From assembly GCA_046349935.1 (NCBI GenBank), contig JAXMBK010000012.1, forward strand, positions 77,556 to 141,555: DNA of 64,000 nucleotides, in the 5' to 3' direction. Both the position numbers and the translations under genes were made by a program. Positions within the stretch are counted from its first letter, which is position 1. Every line of letters begins with the position of its first letter. This document shows positions 12,465 through 34,779 of the stretch, one piece after another. The notes beneath the pieces are model-generated. The model was not told the DNA's origin. It searched no databases and worked only from the letters and a program-made list of their open reading frames with translations. Source of the stretch: Pirellulales bacterium (GTDB lineage: Bacteria; Planctomycetota; Planctomycetia; Pirellulales; Pirellulaceae).

Positions 12465-12548
12465 GTCTCGCTTCGCGCGCAATTCGACGGCGGACATTTG
12501 TCCGCCGTCGGAGATTGCGTCGCGATTCACCCCTTTGGCCGCCGGTTG

Positions 12549-13728: not shown

Positions 13729-13749
13729 CGCGTGAAGGAAATTCGTTGT

Positions 13750-15138: not shown

Positions 15139-15195
15139 GCTCCTTTTCCAAACGTTGTTGACTCGTCAGTTTCCAAGTTGTTTTGCTTTACCAAG

Positions 15196-17094: not shown

Positions 17095-17098
17095 GAAA

Positions 17099-17932
17099 TT
17101 ACCGGTTCCCCGCAGGTTCGACCTTCACCAAGCGACTCCGCGTCACGCCGTTGTCGGAATAGGCCGGCCACGGCAAGTTGGCTTGCCACAACTGGCGGAC
17201 TTGCCGATTGCGTGTGTTCAACTGCACGTTGGCGATCGGCTCGCGGGTGAGGCTCTTGGAGAACTCTGCATGCAAGAGGCCCTTCACTTGGTCTTCTTGC
17301 GCGCCGCTCACCGATTGTTCAATCGCGTAAGAGAAACTCAGGTCGTCGAACGCCTTCACCCCGGCCGGCCCTGGAATGGCCTCGAACTCGAACGCCTTCG
17401 TCCCCTTGGTGTCGGCCTGCTGAAACACGGGCAGATCCACGGGCAGCAGGACGAGCATCGCCACGACGACGGGGGACGGCTGGCCGGTTGGAAACGCGTA
17501 ACTTTCCGTCATGGTGCGTACTTCGCCTGCAACCGTATGCTGCGTTTGCACCTGCCGTAACGCATAGGAATCGCGGTCGACCCACAGTCGAGTGACCGGC
17601 GCTTGCACCTGGGCGTCCAAGCAGTCGATCTGGACGCGAAAACAGGGCCGCTCCGCCACTTGCTCCTCGCCCTGCACCGTAAAGCGCCACGTGAGCGGCT
17701 TGGCGAGGGGAGCGTCCTTGTCGATCGTTTCCCGACGCTGAACTTGCTGCGTCTGGGTTTCAATCTCCCAGCGGTCGCCCACTTTCCAGCGGGGACGCAG
17801 CTTTTCCACGACCAGTTCCCCGTCACGGGCGGTCGCGGCGTTGGGCTGCTGCGCGAACGACCAGGCCCACCCGCCGGCGACGCTCGCCAGCAGCGTGCCG
17901 CAACACACGAGGTTCACAACGTGTTTTCTCAT
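17099..17932 (-). CDS. secreted hypothetical protein
   Basis: Signal peptide. Same strand as, and contiguous with, 15196..17094 and 13750..15138 (likely operon). Confidence 0.5.
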   Translation of the reverse strand: MRKHVVNLVCCGTLLASVAGGWAWSFAQQPNAATARDGELVVEKLRPRWKVGDRWEIETQTQQVQRRETIDKDAPLAKPLTWRFTVQGEEQVAERPCFRVQIDCLDAQVQAPVTRLWVDRDSYALRQVQTQHTVAGEVRTMTESYAFPTGQPSPVVVAMLVLLPVDLPVFQQADTKGTKAFEFEAIPGPAGVKAFDDLSFSYAIEQSVSGAQEDQVKGLLHAEFSKSLTREPIANVQLNTRNRQVRQLWQANLPWPAYSDNGVTRSRLVKVEPAGNR

Positions 17933-18621
17933 GATGATTTTCCTTCAAGAGATGTCGGTTTCCCGCTGACCAGCCCCACCAGCACGCAAAGCGCACCCCG
18001 CAGAGTGACTGGAATCTTAGGACGGCCCTCCGCAGGCCGCAACGCGGGTCTCACTCGGTGAGAGGGGCGGAGCGAGCCAGGATTGCGCTCGCCGCGCTAG
18101 ACGGTGAACGGGCCCGGCTCGGACTCGAGAATTCTTCGCAACGAGCGCAATTCTCGCCGCGACGTCGCCTCTTACGAGCGATGGCGAGGGAGGGGCCGCG
18201 GTCCTCGTCGTCTGGATAAACCATGCCGCGACCCATGCGCACCCCTTCGACGGAGAATTGAATCATGCAGCGCCGTCTTTTCCACGTCAGTCTCACGACT
18301 CTCGCCCTTGCGAGCGGCAGTCTCACCGCCGCCCTCCTGTTCGCGGGGCCCCGCGAATCTCCGCAGCAACAGCAGGAGTCGGCGGTTCAATTTGAGCAGC
18401 CCAGTTTGCTGCCCAACCAAATGGGCCAACAGCAGCAGCAGCAGCAAGAACATCCGGGCGTCCGGCGGCCGCGACAGCACTCTCAGCAAACGCGGCTTCC
18501 GCAACAACAACTGCCGAAACCCAAACTGCAGCCCCGGCATTTTCAACACCTGCAACATACGCCTATCATGCAAGGCAGTCGTCGCCGGTAACCTTCACCT
18601 CGCCATGGTCGCTGGCTTGCC

Positions 18622-21600
18622 TTGCAACCAGCGACCATGTTCCGACGCGGACCCGTGGTATGTCTGTCGATCGAAAGGAATCTCCCGATGCATCGTGTTG
18701 CCTTTCCAGTTCGCATCATGACCGTCGCCTTGTTGTTGTTGGGCGGCGTCTTGGGATGGAATGGCACCGCCCAGGCGGAAGGGCCGTCGACGCTCGACGT
18801 TCAGCAGGCGATCGGTCGATTCTTGGCCGATAAACGAGACTTTGGCGATAACACGAAGTGGGCCGCATTGCGTCGACGCGTGCGGCTGGAACCGGCGATG
18901 GCTTCGGTGATTGATGGACGAATTCACGTCGCCGCACCGATGCTTTGGAAACTTCCGACCGACGAGTCGTCTCAGGCGGTGCGGGAACTTGAGTTGTTAC
19001 TCGCGGCCGCGCTCGAAAAAGCGGCCGGCTCGGACCGACGATTTCGCGGTCGTCCGGCATTCGATTGGGTTCGAGAAAGTACGATTACGACCGCCCCCCC
19101 GGTGGCCATTCGCCGACTAACTGAGGTCAGCGAAGTCGAGGTAATCAGTGTGATCAACGACTATGTGGAGTCGCTGGACCGCGAGAATCGATGGGAAGCC
19201 GAGGGCCTTGGTCCACTTCAACGCAGCCTGCAGCTGCGCGGGCCAAACCTGGGCGTCAGCGAGGCGCGGTTTTGGGGCGACAAGTTGTCGCTCGGGTGGT
19301 CCGCCCTCGTGCGCGATGAGAGCGTTTGGCCATCCGTCACCCCCGCGGTGCGAGCGGCTGCCGCTCGCGCGGCCAGGGAACGTGCCAACGACCGCGACTG
19401 GGCGACGCTCAACAATTTCAATGATCAAGTTCGAACTACCGCGAACCGCCTCCGCGAACGGTACGCCCCGCTCCTTCAACCACTCGTCATCCGAGCGTTG
19501 ACGACGCACGTTGCCGCTCCAGCCTCCGCCCCGCTCCTCGAAGCGGCATCGCCAGCGAGTCTACAAGTCGACTTGTTTCTCGACATCCCCGCGGAATTGA
19601 GGAGGGTCGAGCGCGCAGGAGCAGTCGCAGCGGCGATGCCCCCTGGCGCCGGCAATCGGCGCATTGTGAACGCGGCCGGCAACGACTCAGCTGGCTACAC
19701 GTTTCGCTTTGTCAAAGCCGAGAAGTTGCGACGACTCTCGGCCGAGCAACAACCTGAGCTGACGCATGTGCGGTTAGAAGAAGCAGCCGACTCGGCATCC
19801 GTGAAGCGAAGAGAGTTTCAGCTCGACCTACAAGGATTCTCCGGCGGTACGCTCTCTGCCCTTGAGTTTTCCCCGGACGGCCGACGTCTCGCTGCCGCCG
19901 GCGACGTGCTCCGTATCTGGGACTTAGAGAAGGGCGTGTTGGAGCGAACGTTGCGAGCCGGCCAGATTACCGAGCGTGCAACGGGTTTTCGCGACATTGC
20001 CTATAGCCCAGATGGAAGACTCTTGTGCGCAGCCATGACCGGGACGAAACACCGGATCTGGGTCTACGAAACAGGCGATCTTTCGCGCGTGAAGTTCGCG
20101 TTGGACGGACATGACGAGGAGGTCGAACACCTGGCGTTCTCCAACGACGGCCGACACTTGGCGACCGCCGATATCCAAGGACGCGTCTTTCTTTGGGATT
20201 GGCCCAAGCGCCGCAAGATTTGGGGCTTCAAGTTCGAACACGCGATCAGCCACCTGAGCGTTTCGGAGTTTGAGGTATTGGCGATTGACAGGACGCTCGA
20301 TTTCTCGCGAATTCCGCTCGATCTGGATGCCCCTGGCGGTTGGTTCGGCGACGAAGACCCGCTCATTACGCTCATCAACAACTCGACTTACCCCGGCGCG
20401 AACGCCAAGCTATTCCCTCGTTCGGTGGCCGTTTCGAAAGACTCGCAGACTTGTTTGATCGGCGGGCGATCGGGCCGCGACGGCCAAAACGACAACTACC
20501 ACTGGTGCGCCGCCTTCACCATGGAACAATCGCGTCGCGGCGAACCGCACTCGTCACAGGCGGCGGTCGACCATCGATACACACTGCTGTGTTGCGCGCT
20601 TTCGACCGACGGACGGCTGTGTGCCAGCGGCGATGCGCTTGGCTTGGTTCAAGTATGGGACCGTAAGTCCAGCTTGATCAAACATCGCTTTGAACCGTTC
20701 GGAAAGGGAAACCTGAGCGTCGACTTCGGCGAGTCGCTTGCGGATTGGCGGCTGGGCCGTGATCGCTACATCGGAGAACAGTGGAAGTACAACCATTGGG
20801 CGCCGTTGCACCTTCAGTTCGACTTTGGCAAGCGTATTCTCTCTTCCGTCTCCGCAACCGAACCGCGCGATGCAAGAATCCGCGATCACCAACGTCTTTC
20901 CTACGACTACGATGCAAACCTCCTGAAAATCTACGAGAACGATCAGCTCCAAACTTCCGTCGACTTCAGCTCGCACGGCGCTAATTGGAAACTGTTCGGC
21001 TACGGGTTTTACCCCGTGCAGGGACTCGAAGCCGGCTATGGCGTCATCGTCTGCTCGGAAGGAGGCGGCGTCTTGTGCCTCGATCCGAAGACGCTCCGCC
21101 CTAAACGCATCTTCATCGGCCACAATAGCCGCGTCTGGAGCGCTGCTGTCTCGCGCGACGCGATGAATGGTAAGCGTCTCATCACTACCGGCTCGGACGG
21201 CGTCATCCATGTCTGGAGCCTCGAGCAGTTTCAGCCGACGTATAATTTGGCCGCGTTGGTCGACGAGGATCGCAAGATCACTTACATCTATCCCGGCACG
21301 TCGACGGCCGAACGGCTGGCGATTGGCGATCGCCTCGTGTCGATCGGCGGTCTGACTCCCATCGAATGGCTGGATAGCGACAAGGCCAAGTTAGCGCCCG
21401 ACGATCCAGTGACCGTGGTCATCGAGCGTAACGAACAAAACTACCGCGTGCCGGTCGTCTTGTCCGAAATGGGCGATCTCACGCGGCCTCTCGTCAGCGC
21501 CGTCCTTTCGGAAGATGGCAGCGAATGGGTGATCTGGACGCGGAGCGGCTACTTCGATTGCTCGCCGCAGGCCGGCCGACTGCTCGGCTGGTTGGAGAGT

Positions 21601-22956
21601 CGCGAGGGGGATCAGTCGGCGCAGTTCATCGACGGCGGCCAACTTCGCAAGCTCATGCACCGGCCCGACGTCGTCAACCTGACGCTCACCCTGGGCGACG
21701 AACAACTCGCGCTAAGGCAGGCCGATGCGCTGCGTAACCCAGACGCTCCGCCTCCACCCACGCCCGCTCCCGGCCACGGTAACGTCCCCGTGCCGCTGGC
21801 CTCTACCATCCCGAGCCCTCCCCGCGTGCGTTTGCTGCAACCGCTGGAAGGGTCGGCGACGGTGACCGCCGAAGAGACGGTGGAGGTGCGAGCGGTCGTG
21901 ACGGCGCCTGCCGGTCGGCGACCGGAGATCGTGTTTCGCGTGAACGAGTCGGTCGCCGCCTCGCGCAGCCTGGTCGTCGAGGGGATCGCCCCAGCGCTGC
22001 CGCCGCCGCCGGCTGGCTTCGAGCACTATTTCGCCGGTCAAACGATTTCGCTGCGCTTGGGCTCCAACGTCATCCAAGTGCTGGCGCGCCTGCCCGAAGT
22101 CCAGACTGCCGAGGGCACAAGTTTCGTCATCGTGGAGCGGCGTCCTACCACGGCAAACGGCACATCGACGAAACCCACGCTCCACTGGTGTTCGATCGGC
22201 GTCAACGATTACCAGGGAACGGGTTTGGCCAGCCTGCGATTCGCGCACAACGACGTCGATAAGGTGGCCGAGGCGCTGCTGAAGCGCAAGCAGAAGCCGC
22301 GTTTCCCCTATCAGGACGTGAAGGTGCATCGGCTGGTGGACCAGCAAGCAAGCAAGACGGGGATCGGCGAACTGTTCGACGCCCTCACGAACCCGAATTC
22401 GCCGGATCGCGTTCGTACGGGTGATACGGTGAGCATTCATATCAGCGCGCACGGCGGTAAAGTGGCGGGCACGGACGGCTACATGCTGGTTCCGCATGGC
22501 GGCGACCCTCGCAAGCCGCGCGCAACCTGCGTCTTGTGGAGCGAGTTTGTGGAGTTGGCTCATGCGTTGGGCCAAAAGAATGTCCGCCTACTGTTGTTCG
22601 TGGATACCTGTCGAGCCGGCGGACTGGGCGACATCGAGAGTGGAGCGGCACGGGTCTTCACGAGCGAATTGAGCGGACTGGTCTTCACGGCCAGCGGGGC
22701 CAAGCAGAATGCGTTGGAATCGCCGACTTGGGAGCATGGTGCATTTTCCTTGGCGTTACGCGAGGCGATTGAAGGGCAGCGGCTGTCCGACGTCGAATGG
22801 GCCAGCGGCTTACAGCCCGACCAGGATCGAAACGGCGTCGTCGAAGTACGCGAGCTCGAAGCGTTCCTCCACCGGCGAGTCAAATCGCTCACCATGGACC
22901 AACAAGCCCCCGATTACGCTTGTCCCCGCATGGGGCTCGATCCGGTGTTGTTCTAG
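18622..22956 (+). CDS. large secreted multidomain protein: WD40 repeats, PDZ-like domain, C-terminal caspase-like (C14) domain
   Basis: Signal peptide at the internal Met (MHRVAFPVRIMTVALLLLGG). WD40-like repeats (VWD, HVWS, LWDW). PDZ-like block (IGDRLVSIGGLTPIEW). C-terminal caspase dyad contexts ISAHGG and LLFVDTCRAGG. Confidence 0.75.
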   Translation: MQPATMFRRGPVVCLSIERNLPMHRVAFPVRIMTVALLLLGGVLGWNGTAQAEGPSTLDVQQAIGRFLADKRDFGDNTKWAALRRRVRLEPAMASVIDGRIHVAAPMLWKLPTDESSQAVRELELLLAAALEKAAGSDRRFRGRPAFDWVRESTITTAPPVAIRRLTEVSEVEVISVINDYVESLDRENRWEAEGLGPLQRSLQLRGPNLGVSEARFWGDKLSLGWSALVRDESVWPSVTPAVRAAAARAARERANDRDWATLNNFNDQVRTTANRLRERYAPLLQPLVIRALTTHVAAPASAPLLEAASPASLQVDLFLDIPAELRRVERAGAVAAAMPPGAGNRRIVNAAGNDSAGYTFRFVKAEKLRRLSAEQQPELTHVRLEEAADSASVKRREFQLDLQGFSGGTLSALEFSPDGRRLAAAGDVLRIWDLEKGVLERTLRAGQITERATGFRDIAYSPDGRLLCAAMTGTKHRIWVYETGDLSRVKFALDGHDEEVEHLAFSNDGRHLATADIQGRVFLWDWPKRRKIWGFKFEHAISHLSVSEFEVLAIDRTLDFSRIPLDLDAPGGWFGDEDPLITLINNSTYPGANAKLFPRSVAVSKDSQTCLIGGRSGRDGQNDNYHWCAAFTMEQSRRGEPHSSQAAVDHRYTLLCCALSTDGRLCASGDALGLVQVWDRKSSLIKHRFEPFGKGNLSVDFGESLADWRLGRDRYIGEQWKYNHWAPLHLQFDFGKRILSSVSATEPRDARIRDHQRLSYDYDANLLKIYENDQLQTSVDFSSHGANWKLFGYGFYPVQGLEAGYGVIVCSEGGGVLCLDPKTLRPKRIFIGHNSRVWSAAVSRDAMNGKRLITTGSDGVIHVWSLEQFQPTYNLAALVDEDRKITYIYPGTSTAERLAIGDRLVSIGGLTPIEWLDSDKAKLAPDDPVTVVIERNEQNYRVPVVLSEMGDLTRPLVSAVLSEDGSEWVIWTRSGYFDCSPQAGRLLGWLESREGDQSAQFIDGGQLRKLMHRPDVVNLTLTLGDEQLALRQADALRNPDAPPPPTPAPGHGNVPVPLASTIPSPPRVRLLQPLEGSATVTAEETVEVRAVVTAPAGRRPEIVFRVNESVAASRSLVVEGIAPALPPPPAGFEHYFAGQTISLRLGSNVIQVLARLPEVQTAEGTSFVIVERRPTTANGTSTKPTLHWCSIGVNDYQGTGLASLRFAHNDVDKVAEALLKRKQKPRFPYQDVKVHRLVDQQASKTGIGELFDALTNPNSPDRVRTGDTVSIHISAHGGKVAGTDGYMLVPHGGDPRKPRATCVLWSEFVELAHALGQKNVRLLLFVDTCRAGGLGDIESGAARVFTSELSGLVFTASGAKQNALESPTWEHGAFSLALREAIEGQRLSDVEWASGLQPDQDRNGVVEVRELEAFLHRRVKSLTMDQQAPDYACPRMGLDPVLF

Positions 22957-23252
22957 GCGTTGAACCGCGGAGCGGTCCACAACGAACCGCAGGACAGGCT
23001 TTCAGCCTGTCTCTGGTCGCCGGAGCGTCGTTCCCTCACGGAATCGTAGATGCCCCAAGCGCCTCGCGGGCGGGCCATCCAAGAACGACCGCATGACGGC
23101 TCTCACAAGAAAAACCGCGTCGAGCGTTCGATCAGGGCATCTCCCCAACCTACCAGCACCACGCGGCTCAACGATCGTTTGCCCGCACGGCCGTTCTCTG
23201 CCGCGAGGGACCGGAAAGCAGTCGGTTCCGTCCTGGGGATTCTCTGCTCCCC

Positions 23253-23391
23253 GGATGGAGCTGCGGCAACACGGAAGCCCAGGTTGTTGTTCCGGTTCGT
23301 CGGGTCGTTCCTGTTGCGGTTCGACGACCGGCAGTTCCTGGGACTGTTGTTCCAGCTCCCGCCCCGGATGACCCGGTTCGAGCCTTGTGAC
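23253..23391 (-). repeat. DGR template repeat (TR)
   Basis: ~139 bp, 16 nt downstream of the RT stop. In the target frame it encodes SQGSNRVIRGGSWNNSPRNCRSSNRNRNDPTNRNNNLGFRVAAAPS with 11 AAC (Asn) codons. The two VRs differ from it almost only at its adenines. Confidence 0.85.
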
Positions 23392-23406
23392 TGCTCACCA
23401 GCCTAT

Positions 23407-24396
23407 CTATAGCGTGCGACGACGAAAGCGCCAACTCGCGACGCCGGCTGCTTGCGTGAATGCGACAAGCGCCGTCGCACGCTGCTGTAGTTCAAGGCCG
23501 CTGATTTCACCGCGTTCGTGCTGCCGTTCGAGGCTGGTAATCTTGCGTTGGTAGCGTACGCGGCTGCGACGATTCAGCGTCGCTCCCCACGCGTACACGC
23601 GGCAACCCAGGAAGTCGACGCCCAGATGGCTTCGATTCACGAATGCGTTCGGCTTAAGTTCCAATCCCAGTTCGCCCAGGAAATCTTCGTGCGCCGACTC
23701 CTTAAGTTCTCGGAGCTGATCGCGCGAATCCGACCATAGCAGCATATCGTCCATGTAGCGCACGTAGCCTGGGACGCGCCAGCGCTCCTTGACCCAGCGA
23801 TCGAACCAGCCAAGGTAGAAGTTCGCAAAGTGCTGCGAGGTCAGGCTGCCAATCGGCAATCCTCGTCCTAACTTCCCGCGAAAGCCGGCAATCACCCTTG
23901 CAAACAGCGACAGAAGACGAGCATCTTTGAACAGTCGCGTTAAGCGTGCGTTCAACGGTTGATGCGGGATGGAGTCGAAATAGCGACGAATATCGAGCTT
24001 CAGATACCAGCCGTAACGACGAGAGAATTGCTGCGCACGCAACACGGCGGCAACCCGACCGCGTTCGCGTCGGCAAGCAAAAGTATCGTCGATCAGCCAA
24101 CGATCGAAATAGGGTTCGCAGACATTCATGATCGCATGATGAAGCACCCGTTCCCGAAAGCAAGGCGCGGTGATGATGCGCTCTTTCGGATCGTGAATCA
24201 CGAACTGGCGAAACTCACCGATCGCCAGCCGATCCGTCAAGAGGTCCGTTTGCAGCGCATCGAGATTCCGCTCCAAACAGGCTTGGAACGCACGCGCCTC
24301 GGCACGGTCGCGTTTTCCCCGTAACGCCCTGGCGACCGCCAGTCGCAGGTTATCGCGGTCGGCGATGCTGTCAAACAGATTCGCCACCCGTTTCAT
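23407..24396 (-). CDS. DGR-type reverse transcriptase
   Basis: RT motifs ITAPCFRERVLHHAI, YLKLDIRRYFDSI, LPIGSLTSQHFANFYL (the [LIV]GxxxSQ hallmark of DGR RTs) and YMDD. Start taken at the internal ATG 24396; the long ORF begins at 24480. Confidence 0.85.
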   Translation of the reverse strand: MKRVANLFDSIADRDNLRLAVARALRGKRDRAEARAFQACLERNLDALQTDLLTDRLAIGEFRQFVIHDPKERIITAPCFRERVLHHAIMNVCEPYFDRWLIDDTFACRRERGRVAAVLRAQQFSRRYGWYLKLDIRRYFDSIPHQPLNARLTRLFKDARLLSLFARVIAGFRGKLGRGLPIGSLTSQHFANFYLGWFDRWVKERWRVPGYVRYMDDMLLWSDSRDQLRELKESAHEDFLGELGLELKPNAFVNRSHLGVDFLGCRVYAWGATLNRRSRVRYQRKITSLERQHERGEISGLELQQRATALVAFTQAAGVASWRFRRRTL

Positions 24397-24922
24397 GCAC
24401 GTTCGCCTCCAGCAACTGATCCAGCAACTCCAGGAAGCGCGGCCCATACTTTTCGCTGCGTGCGTCTCCGACTCCAGCAATCGCTGTGAGGGCGGACTTC
24501 GTTCGCACGCGATTCTGCACCATCTGGGCCAATTGCTCGTTGGTGAAGACCGTGTAGATGGGAACCGCCTCCGCCTGCGAAATCTCGCGGCGTAGATCCC
24601 TTAAGCGAGCGAACACCGCGAAGTCCGCCTCGTTCAGGATCTGTTTGTAGTCCTTGCCCTTGCTCTTCCCACTCGAGACGGCGGAGGAACCGTCTCCTGC
24701 CCGGCTCAGTTCCACGTAATCAATGCAGAACGACCAGAACGAGTCGGAACCTTGCTCCACAAAGCGCCGATAAACCGCCAACACGCGATGGCTGCGCAGA
24801 AACCCATTGAGCGCGACTTCGGCCGCCTCCAAATCGCGCACCGGCACCACGAAGAACTTAAACGGCATCCGAACTCCTCGATGATGGGCCGCTCCGCCTT
24901 CCACTGCGGCGTGCCGAGGCAC
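24371..24922 (-). CDS. DGR accessory protein with HRDC-like domain
   Basis: C-terminal block VFTNEQLAQMVQNRVRTKSALTAIAGVGDARSEKYGPRFLELL resembles an HRDC domain. Lies between the target gene and the RT and overlaps the RT start. Confidence 0.6.
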   Translation of the reverse strand: MPRHAAVEGGAAHHRGVRMPFKFFVVPVRDLEAAEVALNGFLRSHRVLAVYRRFVEQGSDSFWSFCIDYVELSRAGDGSSAVSSGKSKGKDYKQILNEADFAVFARLRDLRREISQAEAVPIYTVFTNEQLAQMVQNRVRTKSALTAIAGVGDARSEKYGPRFLELLDQLLEANVHETGGESV

Positions 24923-24991
24923 GGGCTCCGCCCTCTCCGGCCCCGAACGCCTCCGCTCCAGGCTCCGCTCACTCTCTGACCGGCTCCGCCG

Positions 24992-27529
24992 TTACTCACT
25001 GGACGGAACTGCGGCAACACGGAAGCCCAGGCTGCTGCTCCGGCCCGCCGGGTCGACCCCGCTGCGGCTCGACGACCGGCAGCTCCCGGGACTGCTGCCC
25101 CAGCTCCCGCCCCGGAGGACCCGGCCCGAGCCTCGAGAAGGACCGGTCGGGTCCGCCGCTGGCGACTTGCGATAATAGTCACTGTCGTACCAATCACTGC
25201 ACCACTCTAACACGTTCCCTTGCATATCGTACAAACCCCAACCGCTCGGTTTAAACTCGCCCACGGGACTCGTGAACGACCACCGATCATCAAACGAAAA
25301 GCTGGGATATTTGTTGTAATCGAGGCTCGGGTACTTTCGCTCGAAAGAGGCATCTTGAAAGTTGCCGAAACCTTCCAGGCTACGCGGGCGATCGCCGGTG
25401 GGAAAACGCGTCGTGATTCCCGCACGGCAAGCGTATTCCCATTCGGCTTCTCGGGGCAGACGATAGCCGATTCCCGAGACTTCCGAGACCGTGTCGCCGT
25501 CAATCCGGTAACACTCGGTTTTCCCTTCTTGCCGACTCAGCCAATTGCAGTAGCGCACCGCGTCGTTCCAACTCACGTTGACCACCGGATGATCCTCCGA
25601 CTGCGGCCAACCCGTGTTCCGCCAATTGAATTTCCGATCTTGCTTCGAGAATTTTGTCTCTGTGTCGTAACCCCACCCACCCTGCTGGTCCCGTTCGGCA
25701 TCTGTTTCGTACCCAGTCCCCTCCACGAACGACGCGAACTGCCCCTTCGTCACCTCGTAAACGCCCAGCCACAACGGACGCGAGATCTGCACCCGGTGCG
25801 CCGGCGATTCATCCGAGATATCAATTCCAGCCAGCGCGATCCCAGCAGCTTCCAGGTTTGCCGCCGTCTCGTCGCTCCCCATGACAAATTCCCCTGCCGG
25901 AATGTACGCCAACTTCATCCCCTTGGGACTTGTCACGACGTCGCCCGCTTTCGGTTTTGGACGAGGCAGGTGTAGCTGCCACGACGACGAGGTCGGAAAA
26001 CCATCCAGCGACCAGATCTTCTCGCGTGATCCTTGCGAGACGCGTGCGTAGTACCGTCCCGACGACGTCGGCAGCACCGCGCTCGCGAGCTCCAGGCTCG
26101 CTTGCCCACCGGCGCTCGTCGTGGTCCCCCCCAGCGTCTTCCACTCCGTGCTTCCCGTTTCCTGCCACTGCAGCTCCACTCGTACTCCCGACGCCAACGG
26201 CGAGTCCTCCGCGGAACCGTCGCGAACGAGGAACGTCGCCCGAACCATTCGCGGTGGGAGCCGGCCGCGGCGGTCGAGTTCACCGCGCAAGTAGGGCACA
26301 AACACATCGCCGGGGACCTTGCCGCTCACGAAACCTTGCGTCGCGGTCAACAGCACGCGATCGGGTTCCTGCCGCAAGTCGAGCTTGGCCAGCGTTTCCG
26401 CCAACTGCGACCGCAGTTCTCCGCTAAAGGCGGTCGTGGTGGGATGTTTGCGTACGGTGGCGGCCAGCGTCGCTAGGTCCCCCGCCTTCCTCGCCAGCGG
26501 CAGTTCGCGAGAACTCATGGCGCCCGCCGAAAACGGCGTCTGAGCCGGCAGTTTTGCTTCCGCCGACCAGCTTGCGAGATACTTCGAGACAAAGTCTTCG
26601 ACGGCCCTCAACCGCACGAAGTTCTGCCCATCCGCCTCGGCCCCGCCCCGCAGCGCTTCCAGCAGCGCGTAGGTGAACACCCCGTGCCCTACGTTGCCCA
26701 GAGCCGGGTTTTCGTAGCTCAACTGCTTCGGACTGCAGGACGCCAGCTTGTACTGACCGGTTGCCGATACAAATGCCTGCTTGAACGCCGCGTCCATCCC
26801 CTGCTCCGCGGTCGGCGGCCCGACCGACTTCGCGGCGATTCGCTCTTGGCAAGCGTCCACGAACAGCAAGCGATGTCCCGCCTGTGACTGTTCCATGTCC
26901 TCTTCGACCGTATCCAGCGCCACCGCCGTCAGCTTCAAGCGGGTTTTCAATCCGTCGCTCGGCATCACGTACGGTCGGCCCTCGGCCATGAACCCGTGTG
27001 AACTCACCGAACAAACCAACAAATCCGCAGCCTTCGTACCGATGCCGCGCACGGTTTCCAATTGCGAGAGGATCTCGTTGCGATCCGCCGTGCTGACGAC
27101 GGCCTTGGCCGCCTTCAGTTGTTCCAAGTGTCGCTGGACCGATGGCGCCGTCGGCTCGCCCGACAGCAACAAGATGCAGTTCTCGGCCGGAATGAGCTTG
27201 AGTTCGAACACGAAGAGATACGCTTGCTCGACCGCGTCGTGAACGGCGAACTGCAGCCGGTTCAGTTTCTTGTCCTTCGTGAATTCGTTGACGCCGATAA
27301 ACAGCCCCGCGTTGCCCGACGGCGCGGCCCCTGCGACAGGCTCAAATACGGTCCCTTCGACCACCAGACTGCGGCTTGGCCTCGCCGACGGGCCCTCTTG
27401 CCCGCTGGAGAGCGCGATGCACGTGAAGACCAACGCTGCCGTAGCCAAGACGCGATGGGAAGCACGCAGGACATCAGTGGTGGCGCCGATCATGATCGAT
27501 CTGTTCCCTGGAGCAGTGCGGGTTGCCAA
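24992..27529 (-). CDS. secreted caspase-like (C14) protein with C-terminal FGE-sulfatase/C-type-lectin-fold domain; adjacent DGR target
   Basis: Signal peptide. Paralog of 8305..10356 (VSSHGF and LLFVDACQ dyad contexts). Extra central Ig/beta-rich region. C-terminal FGE motifs (HRVQISRP, WGLYDMQGNVLEWCSDWY, RGGSWGS). The 3' end carries VR2. Confidence 0.85.
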   Translation of the reverse strand: MATRTAPGNRSIMIGATTDVLRASHRVLATAALVFTCIALSSGQEGPSARPSRSLVVEGTVFEPVAGAAPSGNAGLFIGVNEFTKDKKLNRLQFAVHDAVEQAYLFVFELKLIPAENCILLLSGEPTAPSVQRHLEQLKAAKAVVSTADRNEILSQLETVRGIGTKAADLLVCSVSSHGFMAEGRPYVMPSDGLKTRLKLTAVALDTVEEDMEQSQAGHRLLFVDACQERIAAKSVGPPTAEQGMDAAFKQAFVSATGQYKLASCSPKQLSYENPALGNVGHGVFTYALLEALRGGAEADGQNFVRLRAVEDFVSKYLASWSAEAKLPAQTPFSAGAMSSRELPLARKAGDLATLAATVRKHPTTTAFSGELRSQLAETLAKLDLRQEPDRVLLTATQGFVSGKVPGDVFVPYLRGELDRRGRLPPRMVRATFLVRDGSAEDSPLASGVRVELQWQETGSTEWKTLGGTTTSAGGQASLELASAVLPTSSGRYYARVSQGSREKIWSLDGFPTSSSWQLHLPRPKPKAGDVVTSPKGMKLAYIPAGEFVMGSDETAANLEAAGIALAGIDISDESPAHRVQISRPLWLGVYEVTKGQFASFVEGTGYETDAERDQQGGWGYDTETKFSKQDRKFNWRNTGWPQSEDHPVVNVSWNDAVRYCNWLSRQEGKTECYRIDGDTVSEVSGIGYRLPREAEWEYACRAGITTRFPTGDRPRSLEGFGNFQDASFERKYPSLDYNKYPSFSFDDRWSFTSPVGEFKPSGWGLYDMQGNVLEWCSDWYDSDYYRKSPAADPTGPSRGSGRVLRGGSWGSSPGSCRSSSRSGVDPAGRSSSLGFRVAAVPSSE
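25001..25138 (-). repeat. DGR variable repeat VR2
   Basis: ~19 of ~104 aligned core positions differ from TR. Every one of them is a TR adenine on the coding strand. Confidence 0.85.
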
Positions 27530-27557: not shown

Positions 27558-28766
27558 TCAGTTTTTCGGCGATTCCTGGATGTGACGTTCGATTTGATCG
27601 CGGAGCGTGGGATCGTCGACCAGCGGCAAGGCCTGCCGCCAGTAGCGACGCGCGTCGTCCGGTCGTTGCAACGCTTCGCTGGCGAGCGCCGCGTTGATCG
27701 CCGCCGTTGCGGATTGCGGACGTTCCCGCATGACGGCCTGAAAGGCGTCGAGGGCCGCCGTGTAGTCCTGCCGTTCGTAGCGTGCCAACCCTAAGCCCAA
27801 CTGAGCGTCGACGCTGTCCGGCTGACGGTCGAGCGCCTCGCTGAACTGGGATTCGGCCGCCGCGATCGCGCCTGCCTTCAACAGGAACTGTCCGAAATTC
27901 ACCCTTAACAAGAGACTATCGGGATACTTCTGCAGCGCCTGCTCCCATTGCTTCTGTTGTTGCTCAAAGGCCGCGTCGAACGTCGGAAAACCCTTTTGGA
28001 AAGCTTGGCCGTTCAGGTCGTAGCCATAGTCGAGCAAGCCGCCTGATCGAGCCAGCGAAACGATGGCCGGATCGGCGCGCCGCGCTTGCAGGTCTGCGTT
28101 GACTACTTGGTCGGTCGCGACGCCGAGCCGGTCGACGCGTGCTGCGATCTGGCTCACTTGCGTGAAATCGCCTTTCTCCAACCGCTCCACCGCCGCCTTC
28201 TCAGCCGCCTCTCGGGCGACTGAAAGGGCATCGGTACGCAGTGGCTCCGCGACATCGCGACTTATCAGTCCCTCGACGCGCTCCAGCGCCGCCAAGTGGT
28301 CGCCACGTGCGAATTCGCCCTTGGCTAGCGCCAACTGCCCCTCGGCCGAATTGGAACGACCTCCGAAGTAGAGCACCGCCGCCACGAGAGTGGCCGCGAC
28401 CGCCAGCGACGCGATCGCCAGGAATGGTCGTCGCGATCCTCCGAGCGGGCCTTCGAACGCACCGCCACCCGCGCCGGGAGGCGAGCTTGATTGTGCCGAT
28501 GCCGCCATGGAGTCGGCAGTGGATTCCTCAATCAAAGGGAGAACGAGCGTGCCACTCTTCACCATTTGGGCGACGAGCGTCGCACAGCGAGTGCACGCGG
28601 CCAAATGGTCGGTGATCTGGCGGGTTTCGGCCGAATCGAGATAGCCTGCCGACCAACGTTCCAACAACGCATCGTCGTCCGCGACATGCGGTCCCGGCGC
28701 AATGCGGTCGGCCGCTGCAGCACCCAGAAATTGGCGAAAGGCTTCGTGCGAATGCGAAGAGGTCAT
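27558..28766 (-). CDS. anti-sigma factor (zinc-finger HxxxCxxC, single TM, periplasmic TPR repeats)
   Basis: DHLAACTRC zinc-binding motif. TM segment FLAIASLAVAATLVAAVLYF. C-terminal TPR-like repeats. ATGA overlap with the upstream sigma gene. Confidence 0.7.
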   Translation of the reverse strand: MTSSHSHEAFRQFLGAAAADRIAPGPHVADDDALLERWSAGYLDSAETRQITDHLAACTRCATLVAQMVKSGTLVLPLIEESTADSMAASAQSSSPPGAGGGAFEGPLGGSRRPFLAIASLAVAATLVAAVLYFGGRSNSAEGQLALAKGEFARGDHLAALERVEGLISRDVAEPLRTDALSVAREAAEKAAVERLEKGDFTQVSQIAARVDRLGVATDQVVNADLQARRADPAIVSLARSGGLLDYGYDLNGQAFQKGFPTFDAAFEQQQKQWEQALQKYPDSLLLRVNFGQFLLKAGAIAAAESQFSEALDRQPDSVDAQLGLGLARYERQDYTAALDAFQAVMRERPQSATAAINAALASEALQRPDDARRYWRQALPLVDDPTLRDQIERHIQESPKN

Positions 28767-29983
28767 GGTCGTCCTCCTGGCGAACGCTTGCCGGCCGACC
28801 GCGCCCCTCGCTCCTCCCCGGCACCGGCGGCATGCCGCGGTGCATGCTCCTTGGCCAGCAAGAGCGTCGTGAGGTCCAGGTCGTCGCCCAACCGCAGTAA
28901 GTGCTTCAGACAGCCGCTCAGCGAGTTGCCTTCGTGCTTGATGCGCGCGAGTAAGAGGTCGCGCAGCTCCGACAGCCCCCGATCGCGTCGTCGCGTGGCC
29001 GTGCCGGGGGCTACCCCCATAATCCTGGCTGCCTCTTGGTTCTCCAAATCGTCGACGAAGTGATGGAGCAGGGCCTGACGCGGCTCGGGCTCCAACAAAT
29101 CGAGCGAATCGCGCAAGGCGAGACGCACTTTGTCGCGACAGTCTCGCTCTGTCGCGGAAAGGTCGGCGGCGACTGCTTTGGCATCCGCAACGCCCGGAAA
29201 TCCCTCAACGGCCGTCGCCTCGCGGCGCTCGCGTTCGGCGTAATGCATGATTTCGCGAACGAACATCCGACCCAACCACGATTTAAGGCCTGAATGCCCT
29301 TGGTAGTTCGCCAGCTTGCCCCCATGCTTTTCGCGCACCACCAGGGTTGCCTTGAGGTCGTCCCACCAATCCAGTTTCTGGGCGTAGCGAGGCGACGTCC
29401 TGCGGGCGACCGCGACGGCAAAGTCTTCAAAGCACTCCAAGAAGATCCGAGTGGCCCGAGGGTCGCCGCGGAGGACGCCGTCTGCCCAGACCAGATCGTG
29501 GATGACATCGCCGCCCAACGTGCCGCTGCCGAGCCCCCTTCCGTTTCGTATTCGCTGCGCCACCCACATGCCGTCGACCTTTCCGCCATCCGTGACCTTG
29601 CATTCCGCCATCCAATGGTACTTCCAACACTCCCAGAGCTTGCGAGCCAGTTCGTAGTAAGCCTCGCCCATCTCGGCGATAACCGGCTGGTTGAGCAGTT
29701 CCTCACCGCGTTCGGCGATCCACTGTTCTAACCGTTTTGCCAGAACGCCCTTAGCCGATTTCCAAAGGGAGGCGGGCGACGTTGTTTTCGCCTGTGAATC
29801 CGAGAAAGGCTGAGTCAGCAGCCATTCGCGGTCCGGTTCAAACAACGTTTCCCAACCGCTCTGAAGCGGCCGATCGTTATTGGAGAGAGGCATGTCGGGC
29901 ATCGGAATTGCGCGAGGAAACGATCCGAGCGTCCAGATCCAGCCCGCCATTGTAGGGTGGACTCTCAGGGGTACAAGAGACAC
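28763..29983 (-). CDS. sigma-70 family (ECF-like, N- and C-terminally extended) RNA polymerase sigma factor
   Basis: Region-4 HTH (ENQEAARIMGVAPGTATRRRDRGLSELR) and a region-2-like segment. Translationally coupled to the anti-sigma gene. Confidence 0.6.
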   Translation of the reverse strand: MSLVPLRVHPTMAGWIWTLGSFPRAIPMPDMPLSNNDRPLQSGWETLFEPDREWLLTQPFSDSQAKTTSPASLWKSAKGVLAKRLEQWIAERGEELLNQPVIAEMGEAYYELARKLWECWKYHWMAECKVTDGGKVDGMWVAQRIRNGRGLGSGTLGGDVIHDLVWADGVLRGDPRATRIFLECFEDFAVAVARRTSPRYAQKLDWWDDLKATLVVREKHGGKLANYQGHSGLKSWLGRMFVREIMHYAERERREATAVEGFPGVADAKAVAADLSATERDCRDKVRLALRDSLDLLEPEPRQALLHHFVDDLENQEAARIMGVAPGTATRRRDRGLSELRDLLLARIKHEGNSLSGCLKHLLRLGDDLDLTTLLLAKEHAPRHAAGAGEERGARSAGKRSPGGRP

Positions 29984-30943: not shown

Positions 30944-33058
30944 ATGGCCAATGTTCACGTCCAAAACGAGCGATGGGTGGTGACGAGCACAGACTTCGCG
31001 ACCCGCATCACGATTCCGGATCTCGACGGCTACTTTCGCAACTTGCCCTTAATCAGCAGTTTTCCTAAGGCGAAGACGCTGGTGATCGAACCGGGAACCC
31101 GGGCGTTCGTCATCGAGGACGATCTTTTGGCAGGGGAATTGCCGCCCGGCGCTTACACCTTGGAGTCGTTCGTGGAGCGGCTGCAGTTCTGGCGGTCGAA
31201 ACAATCGACGGTCGTGCTGGCCCGCCAGGAAGACGTCCCGCTGGAGGACGCCGTCGCTGGAATTCTCAGCCTCGAAGGCGTAGGCGTCGATCTCCGCTAC
31301 CGCTGGACCGTCCAGATCTCCGATATCTTGCTGTTCCTGACCAATCTTTTCGGGGCCCGCACCGCCCTCTCGATTCCGGAACTGGACGGCCTACTCCAGC
31401 CTCTTGTGCGTCAAGCGGTCTACGGGATCGTCGGGGCGACCGGCTACGACCAGATCCGCGACTCGCAGTTTGCGGCGCAGCTTGCGGATGCCCTTCGCTC
31501 GCAGCTCGACGTTCGTCTGCAGCGATACGGTCTGCGATTCGTGGACCTGCAGTCAGTTGCGGTCACGTGCGACGATGCCGGACTCCGCGAGCGACACGGG
31601 GAAGCTTGGCTCGGCTGGCGCGAAAACCAGTTGCAGCGAGCCTTGCATCACGTTGAGAACGATCAGCTCGCCGCCCGACTGGAAGACTATCAGCAAAAGG
31701 TGGCGGTCCGGAAACAGCTGCGCGACGTCGTCGCTTCCGATCGGCTGAATCAGGCCCAATCCAAGGAGGACTTTGCGGCCGCGATCTTCGCGCTCGATAA
31801 GCAGCAGTTGCTCCGCCAAGAAGAGCGGGACTCGCTGACCCAAGCCTACGAGGAGCGCAAGGAAGACCAAGCGCAGCAGCGGGCGCACCTGCTGGCCACG
31901 ATCGACCTGCAACGCGAGCGGGAACTGGAGGAGCTGCGCATCGAATTGGACCATGCGCTCCGTCAGAAATCGCTCCTGCAAGAACTCGAGCTCACGCGTT
32001 TGACGCAGACGCGAGAAGCCGAACAGTGGCGGCATGAGCTGAATCGCGAGCGCGAAGCCGCCACGCATCGACGGGATGAAAAACGGGTGGCGCTGCAGGC
32101 CCGCTGGGAGCGTCTGCGCGACGCTCGCCAGCAGCAGCGCAGCGACCAGTGGGAAGCCGTCCTGCATGAACAGAAGCTGGAGGAAGTGCGTCTCGATCTT
32201 GAGCTCAAGAAGGCGGAACGAGCTCGCCAAGTCGCCCTTATCCAAGCCGAATTGGAGAGCCGGCTCGCAGCCGAGAAATACGAACTCCACCAGCGTCAGC
32301 AGGAATGGGAAGCCGCGCAGCGCGAGAAGCAGAGCCACAATCAACTCGAGCGACTGCAGCAAGTCCAGAACATGAATCTGCAGTTCGCCGAACGACAACA
32401 GCGGATGCAGGCTGAATTGGAGAAGCTGAAAGCGGACGGCGAACATCAACGAGAGATCGAGCGACTGCAGGCGATGAGCACGCTGAGTTCTGACGCGTTG
32501 ATCGCCACCGCCGCGATGGGGAACGCGTCTCTGCTCGCCGACCTCAAGAAGACGGAGTTGGTGAAAGACGGCAATGACGGCGGTGCAGCCCAACAAGCCG
32601 AAAAACTAAACGAAGAACGGCAACGCCTCTACGAACGTCTGAACGAGACGGAACGGGCCAAGGCCGACGCCATCGCCGAAGCATACAAGCTGGCCATGCA
32701 GGCTCAGCACGCCAGCGTGAGTCAGATGATTGGCGGGCTCGCACAAGCGGTAGCGCCGCCGGCGGGAGGCCTGTCGCCCTTTACACCTGCTGGGATGGCC
32801 CCGCCCGGCCCGCCCCCGCTCACGCCCGCGGCCGCGACGTGGTATGTGTCGCTGAACGGGCAACAGTCGCCGCCGCTGCCCCTCGCCCAGTTGCATCAGT
32901 ACATCCAGAGCGGCCAAGTGCAGGCCGCGACCCTGGTTTGGCGAGCCGGGTTGCCAGCGTGGTTGCCAGCCGGCCAAGTGGCGGAGCTCGTGCCCTATTT
33001 TGGGTCGTCCGGGGGGCCGCCGCCGCTGCCGGCCGGAGCGGACGCGAAGCCCAGTTGA
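30944..33058 (+). CDS. SPFH/flotillin-like protein with long coiled coil and C-terminal DUF4339 (GYF-like) domain
   Basis: N-terminal band-7-like segment, ~350 aa of E/R/Q-rich heptads, and a C-terminal block (WYVSLNGQQSPPLPLAQLHQYIQSGQVQAATLVWRAGLPAW) matching DUF4339. Confidence 0.55.
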   Translation: MANVHVQNERWVVTSTDFATRITIPDLDGYFRNLPLISSFPKAKTLVIEPGTRAFVIEDDLLAGELPPGAYTLESFVERLQFWRSKQSTVVLARQEDVPLEDAVAGILSLEGVGVDLRYRWTVQISDILLFLTNLFGARTALSIPELDGLLQPLVRQAVYGIVGATGYDQIRDSQFAAQLADALRSQLDVRLQRYGLRFVDLQSVAVTCDDAGLRERHGEAWLGWRENQLQRALHHVENDQLAARLEDYQQKVAVRKQLRDVVASDRLNQAQSKEDFAAAIFALDKQQLLRQEERDSLTQAYEERKEDQAQQRAHLLATIDLQRERELEELRIELDHALRQKSLLQELELTRLTQTREAEQWRHELNREREAATHRRDEKRVALQARWERLRDARQQQRSDQWEAVLHEQKLEEVRLDLELKKAERARQVALIQAELESRLAAEKYELHQRQQEWEAAQREKQSHNQLERLQQVQNMNLQFAERQQRMQAELEKLKADGEHQREIERLQAMSTLSSDALIATAAMGNASLLADLKKTELVKDGNDGGAAQQAEKLNEERQRLYERLNETERAKADAIAEAYKLAMQAQHASVSQMIGGLAQAVAPPAGGLSPFTPAGMAPPGPPPLTPAAATWYVSLNGQQSPPLPLAQLHQYIQSGQVQAATLVWRAGLPAWLPAGQVAELVPYFGSSGGPPPLPAGADAKPS

Positions 33059-33150
33059 TGCATTCTCGGCGTCGTCAATCGACGCTCGTCGTCAGCCCCA
33101 CTCCTCGGAGGCCGGGCCCCCGGACCTCCTCGCCGTCGTGAGAGATAACC

Positions 33151-34737
33151 GTGGAACAGGGACAAGCCGCTTCGATACTCTACAGCCAGGTGAAGAGTCA
33201 GTTGCGACCCGAGGCAACGCTGGCGGAAATCGAAGCGCAACTGCAGGCCGTGGCCGTCAGCGCAAACCTTGCTGCTGGGGTAATCATCGAAGTCATGGCC
33301 CGGTTCCAACAGGATCATCAGGCGATTTCAGAGGGGGCCACGCCTCGTCTACTCGTGAATTGGGGTGAGCCCCCCCGCATGGGACATCAGGTGCGTCCCG
33401 AGTTCAGCCTGATTTGCCCAGGGTACAACGCGCGTCCCGAAGTCGTCGTCGCCGTCGACCGCCAGCTCGATCACGAAGCTCTTGATCTCCGACCGCGAGT
33501 GCAGGAAGACGCGCCCGGGCTCTGGACGTTCAGCGTTCCCTTTCAGATGACATCGCAGGGCCTCGATTGTTGCCCCGGTCAGTATTTGATCGACGTCGCA
33601 GTCTCATTCCGCGACGGCCCCGCGTCTCGCCCGCGCTTTTATCGGTGTCGGATTCGCCTCCATGTCACCGGCGGCGGCGCTGGCAGCGAGGGCGGCGTCC
33701 TGGAGATCGATAGCGACGGTCAGTCGGTCGTCAATCTGCAGGGGTACAACCTGAAGCAGTTCTCGCGCGTCATCCTCAAGGGCGGTCAAGCCGGCATCAT
33801 CAACGTCGCGCAGCCGCTGGGAGAGAGTGCGACCGCGGCCCCCGCCCTGCCGCACCAGCCGGCGACCGCCTTTGCGTATCAGCTACGGGTAGATGCAGAA
33901 AAGGAGGCCCGCCTGCCGCGGCTCGCGCCCCGTTCGCGGCCCCGCAGTAAACTGGAGAAAGCCGGGCTGTTCTTTGCGGACGGGCGGCGAACGATCGTCC
34001 TGGCGAAACGAAAAATCACCTTTGGGCGCAGTCGCGGTAACGACGTCGTGCTCCGCTTCTTGCCATCAGACAAGGCGAACGACGATTATTCGCGAAACAT
34101 CTCGCGCACGCATTTCACGGCCGAATTGACGGCGGAGGGCATCGAACTGCGGGACGAGTCGCGCAGCGGTCTGGAGTTCAACTATGCGGTGGTGCGCGAG
34201 CGACAGGTCATACCCGCGACGTATGCCGGGGATGTACTGCCCGTGGAACTAGGCGTCACGGGAACCGTCCCGAAGAAGTTCGCGCTCGAGATGACGTTGT
34301 TCGCGCCCGATCATCGGTTCGAACAACCGCACGAGCTCGAGTATTGGGATGAACTCTACTGCGAGATCGTGGGCGGCCGCCGTTCGCGGCTAGCGCGGGA
34401 GGCCGTCGAGGTCATGCTGAATGCGGTGCGCTATGACCGGGCCGAAAATCTCGCGGGCGAGGAGTCGTACGTCCATCTCGTGCGGGAAGCCCTCATCGGC
34501 GGTTCCCGCAGCCAAGCGGCGATCGTCCTCCACGATGGCGTCCCCCAACCGCAAGCTCGTTTACTGCACATGGATGAATCTTTCTGGCTGGAACCCCTTC
34601 CTGGCTCTCAGCCGATCAGCATTGACGGGGTCCCGGCGGACCCCCGTTCCCTGCACCCTTTGTCGCCGGGAATGCAGCTGGTGTTTGACACCGAAAGCCT
34701 ACGCTTCGACCTTCCAGCTCAGCGGTACTTGGACTAA
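33151..34737 (+). CDS. FHA domain-containing protein
   Basis: FHA signature ITFGRSRGNDVVL...ISRTHFTAE...GIELRDESRSGLEFN in the central region. Confidence 0.7.
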   Translation: MEQGQAASILYSQVKSQLRPEATLAEIEAQLQAVAVSANLAAGVIIEVMARFQQDHQAISEGATPRLLVNWGEPPRMGHQVRPEFSLICPGYNARPEVVVAVDRQLDHEALDLRPRVQEDAPGLWTFSVPFQMTSQGLDCCPGQYLIDVAVSFRDGPASRPRFYRCRIRLHVTGGGAGSEGGVLEIDSDGQSVVNLQGYNLKQFSRVILKGGQAGIINVAQPLGESATAAPALPHQPATAFAYQLRVDAEKEARLPRLAPRSRPRSKLEKAGLFFADGRRTIVLAKRKITFGRSRGNDVVLRFLPSDKANDDYSRNISRTHFTAELTAEGIELRDESRSGLEFNYAVVRERQVIPATYAGDVLPVELGVTGTVPKKFALEMTLFAPDHRFEQPHELEYWDELYCEIVGGRRSRLAREAVEVMLNAVRYDRAENLAGEESYVHLVREALIGGSRSQAAIVLHDGVPQPQARLLHMDESFWLEPLPGSQPISIDGVPADPRSLHPLSPGMQLVFDTESLRFDLPAQRYLD

Positions 34738-34779
34738 CCCACCAGCGGACCGATGGCTGGCTGATGGCGGCCGGTTGCG

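Follow-up and report, generated by a model that had tools for sequence, protein, structure and literature searches.

Evidence for a chromosomal HRDC-lineage diversity-generating retroelement with a predicted exported caspase-lectin target in a Pirellulales metagenome-assembled genome

What is being rewritten at this locus, and by what? The 64,000 nt stretch of DNA analysed here, termed the window, covers positions 77,556 to 141,555 (forward strand) of contig JAXMBK010000012.1, assembly GCA_046349935.1, from a Pirellulales (Planctomycetota) metagenome-assembled genome (MAG), and the 3' end of one of its genes, coding for a caspase-like protein, reappears in altered form directly beyond a reverse transcriptase (RT) gene. 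An earlier note on this DNA had taken the arrangement for a diversity-generating retroelement (DGR) composed of an RT, an accessory protein carrying an HRDC domain and a template repeat (TR), with a variable repeat (VR) in the target gene. Our analysis indicates that the locus is very probably a chromosomal DGR of the HRDC-accessory lineage which diversifies an exported caspase-lectin protein. The DGR is complete and apparently recently active. In the public record the target is labelled 'SUMF1/EgtB/PvdO family nonheme iron enzyme', the RT 'reverse transcriptase/maturase family protein' and the accessory 'HRDC protein', labels which render the DGR invisible to readers of the annotation.

On the minus strand, 23392..23252 aligns without gaps to 25140..25000 (offset +1748) at the end of the target gene and, again without gaps, to 8453..8313 (offset -14939) in a second gene, the three repeats being termed TR, VR1 and VR2, respectively (Table 1). 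The 5' border of the homology between TR and VR1 is formed by mismatches at 23392 and 23391, homology beginning at 23390, which confirms the 16-nt gap previously noted between the RT stop codon (23409..23407) and the TR. Within the portion of the TR taken as copied, 23388..23261, a length of 128 nt consisting of 33 A and 95 non-A positions, VR1 is changed at 21 of the A positions and at none of the non-A positions (binomial p = 4.3e-13). The earlier estimate of about 19 differences, each at a TR adenine, was thus essentially right. Two further differences, C>T at 23260 and A>G at 23256, lie outside the copied part at the 3' end, and the T at the position equivalent to 23260 is also present in VR2. 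Comparison of the VR1 end, GCAGTTCCGTCC, with the TR end, GCAGCTCCATCC, gives 2 mismatched positions, one in common with VR2, and these differences are interpreted as falling in an uncopied end resembling an initiation of mutagenic homing (IMH) sequence. Tabulation of the mismatches by TR base, an analysis proposed in the earlier note, yielded an A-specific pattern for VR1 and an A-biased pattern with 8 non-A differences for VR2. The lack of any non-A difference between TR and VR1, compared with the 8 in VR2, suggests that the last homing event was recent.

In the target frame the TR contains 11 AAC codons, a number reported previously and confirmed by codon count, and each of these is changed in VR1. 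Of the TR adenines, 17, 15 and 4 are located at codon positions 1, 2 and 3, respectively, and a stop codon is unreachable by mutation from any A-containing TR codon; the theoretical TR repertoire is ~4e17 peptides. The VR constitutes the final 46 codons of the target gene, within the FGE-sulfatase domain (FGE, formylglycine-generating enzyme).

DGR-lineage RTs are marked by the motif [I/L]GxxxSQ, other RTs having QGxxxSP. The RT encoded in the window carries GLPIGSLTSQHFAN, and alignment of its LPIGSLTSQHFAN segment with PIGSLTSQLFAN of the Bordetella phage RT (bRT) substantiates the DGR motif recognized in the earlier note. The structure of bRT, 8ub7, is also the top PDB match (E 3.8e-38, residues 30-320), the next matches being retron-type and group II RTs at ~1e-12, and the Pfam match is to RVT_1 (E 3e-17). 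Comparison with NCBIfam models placed the RT far under the cut-offs for group II (TIGR04416, 99 bits with a cut-off of 300), retron St85 (NF038233, 40.9 bits with a cut-off of 235) and Drt3a (43 bits with a cut-off of 200). Rfam matched no intron or retron RNA in 22900..25300, the scan around the cassette returning two chance miRNA-like matches alone.

Relatives were sought in one genome per species, yielding 16 loci with RTs 36-56% identical to that of the window. The loci span at least seven phyla and were observed in Planctomycetota, Deltaproteobacteria, Lentisphaerota, Kiritimatiellota, Verrucomicrobiota, Bacteroidota, anammox bacteria, Anaerolineae and Cloacimonadota; in the wider database, >3200 RT relatives were detected at E <= 1e-30, many of them from Pirellulales. 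All 16 loci contain a TR-like sequence, 70-82% identical to the window TR, 30-40 nt past the RT, and in nearly all an HRDC gene either immediately precedes the RT or immediately follows the TR. Adenine-biased TR/VR pairs were obtained in 13 cases, and the targets in related loci include Pkinase-FGE, NACHT-FGE, Metallophos-NACHT-FGE and nSTAND1-FGE proteins. The gene order target-accessory-RT-TR and the HRDC accessory, which the earlier note had regarded as atypical, are in fact the rule in this RT lineage (TR after RT in 16/16) and have been published, RT-TR cores A2 and B2 and the HRDC Architecture C having been classified by Wu et al. 2018 (PMC5758913), where HRDC DGRs account for 14/372 in 11 arrangements. 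An Avd-like gene was found neither in the window nor in most close relatives, within the sequence available. Locus L026 (RT 62% identity) combines the order Pkinase-FGE, HRDC, RT and TR with a short bAvd-like gene (9387..9635) and a TR-flanking structured RNA (9030..9290), and an Avd-like gene is present as well as HRDC in L016 (2157..2399) and L017 (5766..5996).

Alignment of the 16 loci revealed a structured RNA around the TR. Helix P1 is formed between 23233..23227 and the final 7 nt of the TR (23259..23253), and S1, directly 5' of the TR, pairs with S1' beyond it. The S1:S1' duplex, with an S1 strand of 8-13 nt, occurs at the same place in the 16 loci, in most of them with different sequences, as illustrated by TAGGGTTGTTTTC/GAAAACAATCCTG in L008 and GGGAACCGGCG/CGCCGGTTTCC in L004; the mean Watson-Crick run is 8.3 compared with 4.7 in shuffles, with p <= 0.035 in 11/16 loci. 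P1 and P3 together are 78.7% paired versus 37-52% when the partner is slid, and their covariation, 0.489 versus <= 0.21, was reached by 0/500 shuffles. P4 stems of 8-14 bp, unrelated in sequence in most loci, contain a GGUAG-like motif and are followed by a T-run in most loci. P1, S1:S1' and P4 were first spotted by inspection and then statistically tested; RNAalifold on the raw MAFFT alignment gave P3 alone, and single-sequence minimum free energy folds were inconsistent. The TR-flanking RNA matched no Rfam family, and a promoter scan detected nothing, its terminator search missing the long P4 terminator. Because the structured RNA and the probable terminator run past the TR, the element reaches ~23108 and not the lower bound of 23253 assigned to it previously.

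In the Bordetella DGR RNA, TR:Sp pairing is described as forming a template:primer duplex, which is followed by a linker of two nucleotides, the 'cPRT stop' duplex (avd:Sp), a stem-loop and adenosines, in a survey of DGR RNAs which took in Avd-containing DGRs only (bioRxiv 10.1101/2023.10.23.563531). Judged by its predicted pairings, the RNA flanking the TR in the window has this same topology, with covariation support. By analogy with that RNA, cDNA would be primed at or near A23227 with copying from ~C23260, a start which would account for the two differences at 23260 and 23256 falling outside the adenine-mutagenesis pattern. HRDC-only DGRs may share the self-priming RNA architecture of Avd-type DGRs, with the HRDC protein in Avd's place. 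The comparative RNA provides a testable priming model for Avd-less DGRs, the key nucleotides being S1 23401-23389, S1' 23223-23211 and P1 23259-23253/23233-23227.

The accessory protein, belonging to one of the types encoded in DGR cassettes (Avd, HRDC, MSL or CH1), matches the Pfam HRDC domain (E 1e-16), and in its AlphaFold2 model (pLDDT 85.8) this domain superposes on the HRDC domain of E. coli RecQ, 1wud, with a TMt of 0.90 and a root-mean-square deviation of 0.8 A (Foldseek), in agreement with the earlier assignment of the accessory as HRDC-type and not Avd. The N-terminal beta-alpha-beta-beta domain (24713..24868) is modelled confidently and kept in ~300 homologues, and homologues of the accessory, from residue 1 on, adjoin the RT in related loci. 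This domain has no significant Pfam or PDB fold match; an Alba-like identity was considered and rejected, as fold matches at E ~0.4 only are not evidence. The end of the accessory gene overlaps the RT start by 26 nt. All three start codons given previously were revised, from TTG 27529 to ATG 27493 for the target, from GTG 24922 to ATG 24868 (165 aa) for the accessory and from TTG 24480 to ATG 24396 (329 aa) for the RT, all in agreement with the proteins of the NCBI record.

In the target protein, Pfam detects Peptidase_C14 (PF00656, E 6e-11) and FGE-sulfatase (E 2e-58). In the AlphaFold2 model (mean pLDDT 90.6), a hydrophobic helix at the N-terminus is followed by a caspase, a linker of three helices, a beta-sandwich and a C-type lectin (CLec) domain of the FGE type, and Foldseek retrieves FGEs (TMt 0.75-0.85) as well as TvpA, a DGR target from Treponema (2y3c, E 3e-19), with whose C-terminal variable segment the VR segment aligns gap-free. 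Pfam, Foldseek and the TvpA alignment agree on the location of the VR in the RGGSW...LGFRV segment of an FGE/CLec fold, as the earlier note had it, and the joining of this scaffold to a signal peptide and a C14 caspase is borne out by the Pfam match and a signal-like N-terminus. True FGEs have a catalytic, copper-binding Cys pair, C-x4-C, in the C-terminal segment. When the target is aligned to FGEs (...GGSYLCHDSYC...), the first Cys is replaced by a Ser encoded by a TR AAC codon and the second is kept. Because a variable, TR-AAC-encoded residue stands in place of the first catalytic Cys, the FGE/CLec domain is predicted to be a binder, not an enzyme; the record name of the target as a nonheme iron enzyme is misleading.

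The caspase residues His166 (SHG) and Cys215 (DxCQ) are invariant in 20 aligned family members and the protease is apparently active, as far as the sequence indicates. N-termini in 13/13 family members display a basic stretch, a hydrophobic stretch and an (A/G)-Q(D/E) junction, which points to export by means of a signal-like peptide. An exported, apparently active caspase-like protease suggests that the variable binding module would steer the protease outside the cytoplasm, and its most likely role is to direct or gate the protease there, with a sensing or effector function within an island of conflict or signalling genes rich in caspases. The caspase-FGE family with signal-like peptides is common in Planctomycetota and Verrucomicrobiota, often with several paralogues per locus. 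Most family members have no RT within 10 kb, and the many DGR-less paralogues provide a natural comparison between diversified and undiversified forms of one protease-binder.

In the mechanism we propose, the target, HRDC protein, RT, TR and RNA tail would be read on the minus strand, possibly together with an upstream sigma/anti-sigma pair, the transcript ending at the terminator near 23110. The TR RNA would fold by pairing of S1, just 5' of the TR, with S1' on its 3' side, while the last 7 nt of the TR would be engaged with the downstream strand in P1. The RT, aided by the HRDC protein instead of Avd, would self-prime cDNA synthesis from the RNA next to P1 and copy the TR from ~23260/23261, where we infer the start site to be, toward 23388, inserting random bases opposite adenines. 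The cDNA would then replace VR1 (25009..25136), with up to 19 codons rewritten to give ~4e17 possible peptides and no stops, and the rewritten codons would sit in the ligand-binding face of the C-terminal FGE/CLec domain. Current activity, the role of the HRDC protein and the substrate of the protease are likewise features that we infer.

The Bordetella phage BPP-1 DGR (mtd-avd-TR-brt) resembles this cassette in its homologous RT (E 4e-38), the IGSLTSQ motif, adenine-specific TR/VR differences and a VR at the C-terminus of a C-type-lectin-fold binder. The two differ in that HRDC is present here and Avd there, the RT gene is upstream of the TR here and downstream there, the element is chromosomal here and in a phage there, and the diversified protein is a protease, predicted to be exported, fused to an FGE-type CLec here and a tail-fibre tip there. 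The Treponema denticola TvpA DGR and Architecture C share with it an HRDC gene in the cassette, an FGE-type CLec and the gap-free VR alignment; in contrast, no avd was detected here, the target adds a caspase and a beta-sandwich, and the lineage is planctomycete; it is also large, with >3200 RT relatives against 14 HRDC DGRs in the published data set. A caspase on a DGR scaffold is not new, since orthocaspase-like N-terminal domains on cyanobacterial DGR variable proteins (PMC7517822), protease-related FGE targets of DGRs (PMC5758913), a CHAT/TIR target and peptidase effectors in RT clade 5 (PMC10907252) and conflict systems in which FGS domains are linked to DGRs (PMC7159879) have already been published. 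As in the cyanobacterial and 'clade 5' DGRs, on whose targets orthocaspase-like, CHAT, TIR, kinase and STAND domains are reported (Vallota-Eastman 2020; Dore 2024; Kaur 2020), a C-terminal variable FGE/CLec is joined to an N-terminal effector or signalling domain and the neighbourhood is rich in caspases, WD40, FHA, GYF and kinases. Unlike those targets, the family described here has a signal-like peptide and no NTPase, so that sensing would be outside the cytoplasm, and there is no adjacent MoxR/vWA or STAND partner. The resemblance to RT clade 5 is circumstantial, consisting of the kinase-, NACHT- and nSTAND-CLec targets of the relatives. The system belongs to a documented lineage with a documented target type, and what is added is modest: an exported caspase-lectin target family in Planctomycetota, a covariation-supported RNA architecture of HRDC-type DGRs and a drifted second target. 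It nevertheless offers a clean, complete case of the little-studied HRDC-type DGRs, in a phylum and with an exported caspase-lectin target class not highlighted in the published surveys consulted.

The third copy of the repeat that had been noted at 8314..8451, VR2, does exist, at the end of a paralogous caspase-FGE gene. VR2 differs from the TR at 18/33 A and 8/95 non-A positions (A bias p = 4e-6), the non-A differences being scattered over the copied part and several of them non-synonymous. Its non-A identity to the TR is 91.6% versus ~72% for neighbouring paralogous coding DNA. Twelve A sites are altered in both VR1 and VR2, to the same base at 7 and to a different base at 5. The A bias combined with the 8 non-A differences suggests that VR2 was written by a DGR, but not lately by the present TR, and VR2 appears to be an older, drifted target, either former or remote; no second RT or TR was found in the 64 kb of the window. 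The 79 nt 3' of VR1 and VR2 are 87% identical, compared with ~72% for paralogous coding DNA, and the VR1 flank is a candidate target-recognition or cruciform element. This flank is also 88% identical over 65 nt to that of P0003 (L018 12383..12449), the orthologous gene in another Pirellulales MAG, whose VR end is the same, GCCGCAGTTCCGTCCAG. Neither an RT nor an HRDC gene was found within 10 kb of P0003, nor remnants of them downstream of it, and an IS110 transposase is located 0.8 kb downstream. Flank motifs of the GGCGGAGCC type were considered as a genome-wide repeat and set aside, as they are not a general repeat in the window, and kinase-FGE C-termini in the window were rejected as extra VRs, having 70-74% identity and no A bias.

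Three other explanations of these observations were weighed. We give next to no credence to the view that the locus is not a DGR, its RT being of the retron, group II intron or defence (DRT) type and its repeats ordinary paralogous sequence. The weak, sub-threshold NCBIfam matches to group II (99/300 bits), retron St85 (41/235) and Drt3a (43/200) models and the 'maturase' in the NCBI name of the RT lean in its favour, but it is refuted by the PDB search, in which a DGR RT structure leads all other matches by 26 orders of magnitude, by the lack of an Rfam intron or retron RNA, by adenine-only mismatches (p = 4e-13) and by the recurrence of the cassette with A-biased repeats in 13 related loci. 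A role for VR2, 15 kb away, as an additional target in present use by the same TR is rather unlikely, even though 18 of its 26 differences from the TR are at adenines, an IMH-like end is retained, the 3' flank resembles that of VR1 and forms a better hairpin, and the different bases at 5/12 shared sites suggest that VR1 and VR2 were written at least partly independently. Homing from the present TR would erase the 8 scattered non-A differences, in related loci each 134-nt frame contains <=5 non-A differences, located mainly at the edges, and the IMH-like end of VR2 differs from that of VR1 at 2 positions. It is quite improbable that the DGR is intact in sequence but inactive, VR1 having been written earlier and since fixed with the cassette now a passenger. 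Such a history would be compatible with the lack of population variation in a single-member cluster and two empty metagenome scans, with selection after the last event as the source of an A>G-skewed, Ser/Gly-rich VR1, with the degraded hairpin downstream of VR1 and with loss of the cassette beside the orthologous gene in the related MAG. It is at odds with the 0/95 non-A differences between TR and VR1, compared with 8 in the drifted VR2, with uninterrupted RT, HRDC and target open reading frames having intact catalytic motifs and with preservation of every RNA helix.

Several observations nevertheless weigh against a DGR that operates as we propose. The searches gave no direct sign of ongoing diversification: the target stands alone in its 90% cluster, and no other copy came up when metagenomes were scanned twice, once with a 35-mer of TR sequence and once with a 26-mer immediately preceding VR1. 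Searching public assemblies for exact copies of the target protein, from three alternative starts, likewise gave no match, and the RT alone is found on a 1.3-kb Logan contig that is identical to the window and uninformative on the VR. VR1 substitutions are skewed to A>G (18/22 versus 38% in 13 related VRs, p = 3e-5), the substitutions of TR adenines in those 13 VRs being A>T in 61, A>G in 52 and A>C in 25 cases, and the Ser/Gly-rich composition of VR1 results from this skew. The flank inverted repeat is well formed at VR2 and imperfect at VR1, where it lies 46 nt from the stop, and the predicted priming base is A in 11/16 aligned loci and U in five. Export is judged on features of the protein sequence alone. 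Finally, tblastn detected no Avd homologue in the window, the close relative L026 has an Avd fragment besides HRDC, and to our knowledge replacement of Avd by an HRDC protein has never been shown biochemically.

Table 1. Coordinates of the DGR cassette, its RNA elements, the second repeat and the adjacent regulatory genes in the window
Feature	Position	Strand	Description
Target gene (P0001), 833 aa	24992..27493	minus	signal-like N-terminus aa 1-31 (...ALSSG-QE); caspase C14 aa ~55-336 (His166/Cys215); helical linker 339-408; beta-sandwich 416-509; FGE/C-type-lectin fold 519-833
VR1, 3' end of target gene	25001..25138	minus	counterpart of copied TR 25009..25136
VR1 3' non-coding flank	24887..24991	minus	GCGGAGCC-like repeats and imperfect GC-rich inverted repeat
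Accessory gene (P0203), 165 aa	24371..24868	minus	beta-alpha-beta-beta aa 1-52; disordered linker; HRDC aa 74-159
DGR RT gene (P0083), 329 aa	23407..24396	minus	YMDD and DGR motif LPIGSLTSQHFAN
S1, RNA strand directly 5' of TR	23389..23401	minus	CUGGUGAGCAGUC; pairs with S1' beyond TR; analogue of avd:Sp 'cPRT stop' duplex
TR	23253..23390	minus	probable copied part 23388..23261; last 7 nt 23259..23253, P1 strand
3' RNA domain (Sp-like)	23108..23252	minus	16-locus alignment
Inner hairpin	23251-23235	minus	
P1 3' strand	23233-23227	minus	
2-nt linker	23226-23225	minus	AC
S1'	23223-23211	minus	
P3	23209..23205 with 23186..23182	minus	hairpin, then CAAAC (CAAAA as the conserved motif of the 16 loci)
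P4	23166..23161 with 23120..23115	minus	encloses GGUAG motif at 23154-23150
T-run	23114..23108	minus	probable terminator
Paralogous caspase-FGE gene (P0024), 683 aa	8305..10356	minus	VR2 8314..8451; conserved flank 8236..8304; Pfam C14 and FGE
zf-HC2/transmembrane/TPR anti-sigma-like gene	27558..28766	minus	TPR_16 E 2.5e-11; weak zf-HC2 match
ECF-like (extracytoplasmic function) sigma factor gene	28763..29983	minus	Sigma70_r4_2 E 6e-9

The sigma/anti-sigma pair immediately precedes the target on the same strand, the spacings being 4 nt and 64 nt, and may be co-transcribed with the DGR cassette. A distant homologue of the pair lies beside a caspase-FGE gene in L022 (14345..16653), an association of sigma/anti-sigma genes with caspase-FGE genes which is suggestive only. 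A different sigma-70 family gene is present near P0002 in L020 (5126..6172). It is very doubtful that the target is a reprogrammable extracytoplasmic sensor-protease wired to this ECF-type sigma and zf-HC2-TPR anti-sigma pair. Were this so, ligand binding would activate the caspase, which would cleave the periplasmic part of the anti-sigma protein or another local substrate and elicit a transcriptional response, and the DGR would continually rewrite the ligand specificity, producing an 'adaptive' signalling receptor.

PADLOC called no defence system, returning generic RT, caspase and HRDC (DpdF) matches only. A dense island of caspase-family and signalling genes occupies 10560..22956 and 30944..47417, and includes genes for caspase-PDZ, DUF4384-caspase, transglutaminase-elicitor-DUF4384, 1444-aa WD40-caspase, GYF and FHA proteins as well as three tandem Ser/Thr Pkinase-double-zinc-ribbon proteins, two with FGE domains at their C-termini. 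Within the island, gene 37974..42611 contains four internal repeats of ~300 nt each at 39738..41306. A mobile-element-rich region, unrelated to the DGR, is also present (49510..50706, 54642..55880, 58700..59755 and 62386..62685), in which a DDE transposase and an rve integrase are encoded together with a tyrosine integrase, the final 300 nt of which are repeated 12 kb away (91% identity).

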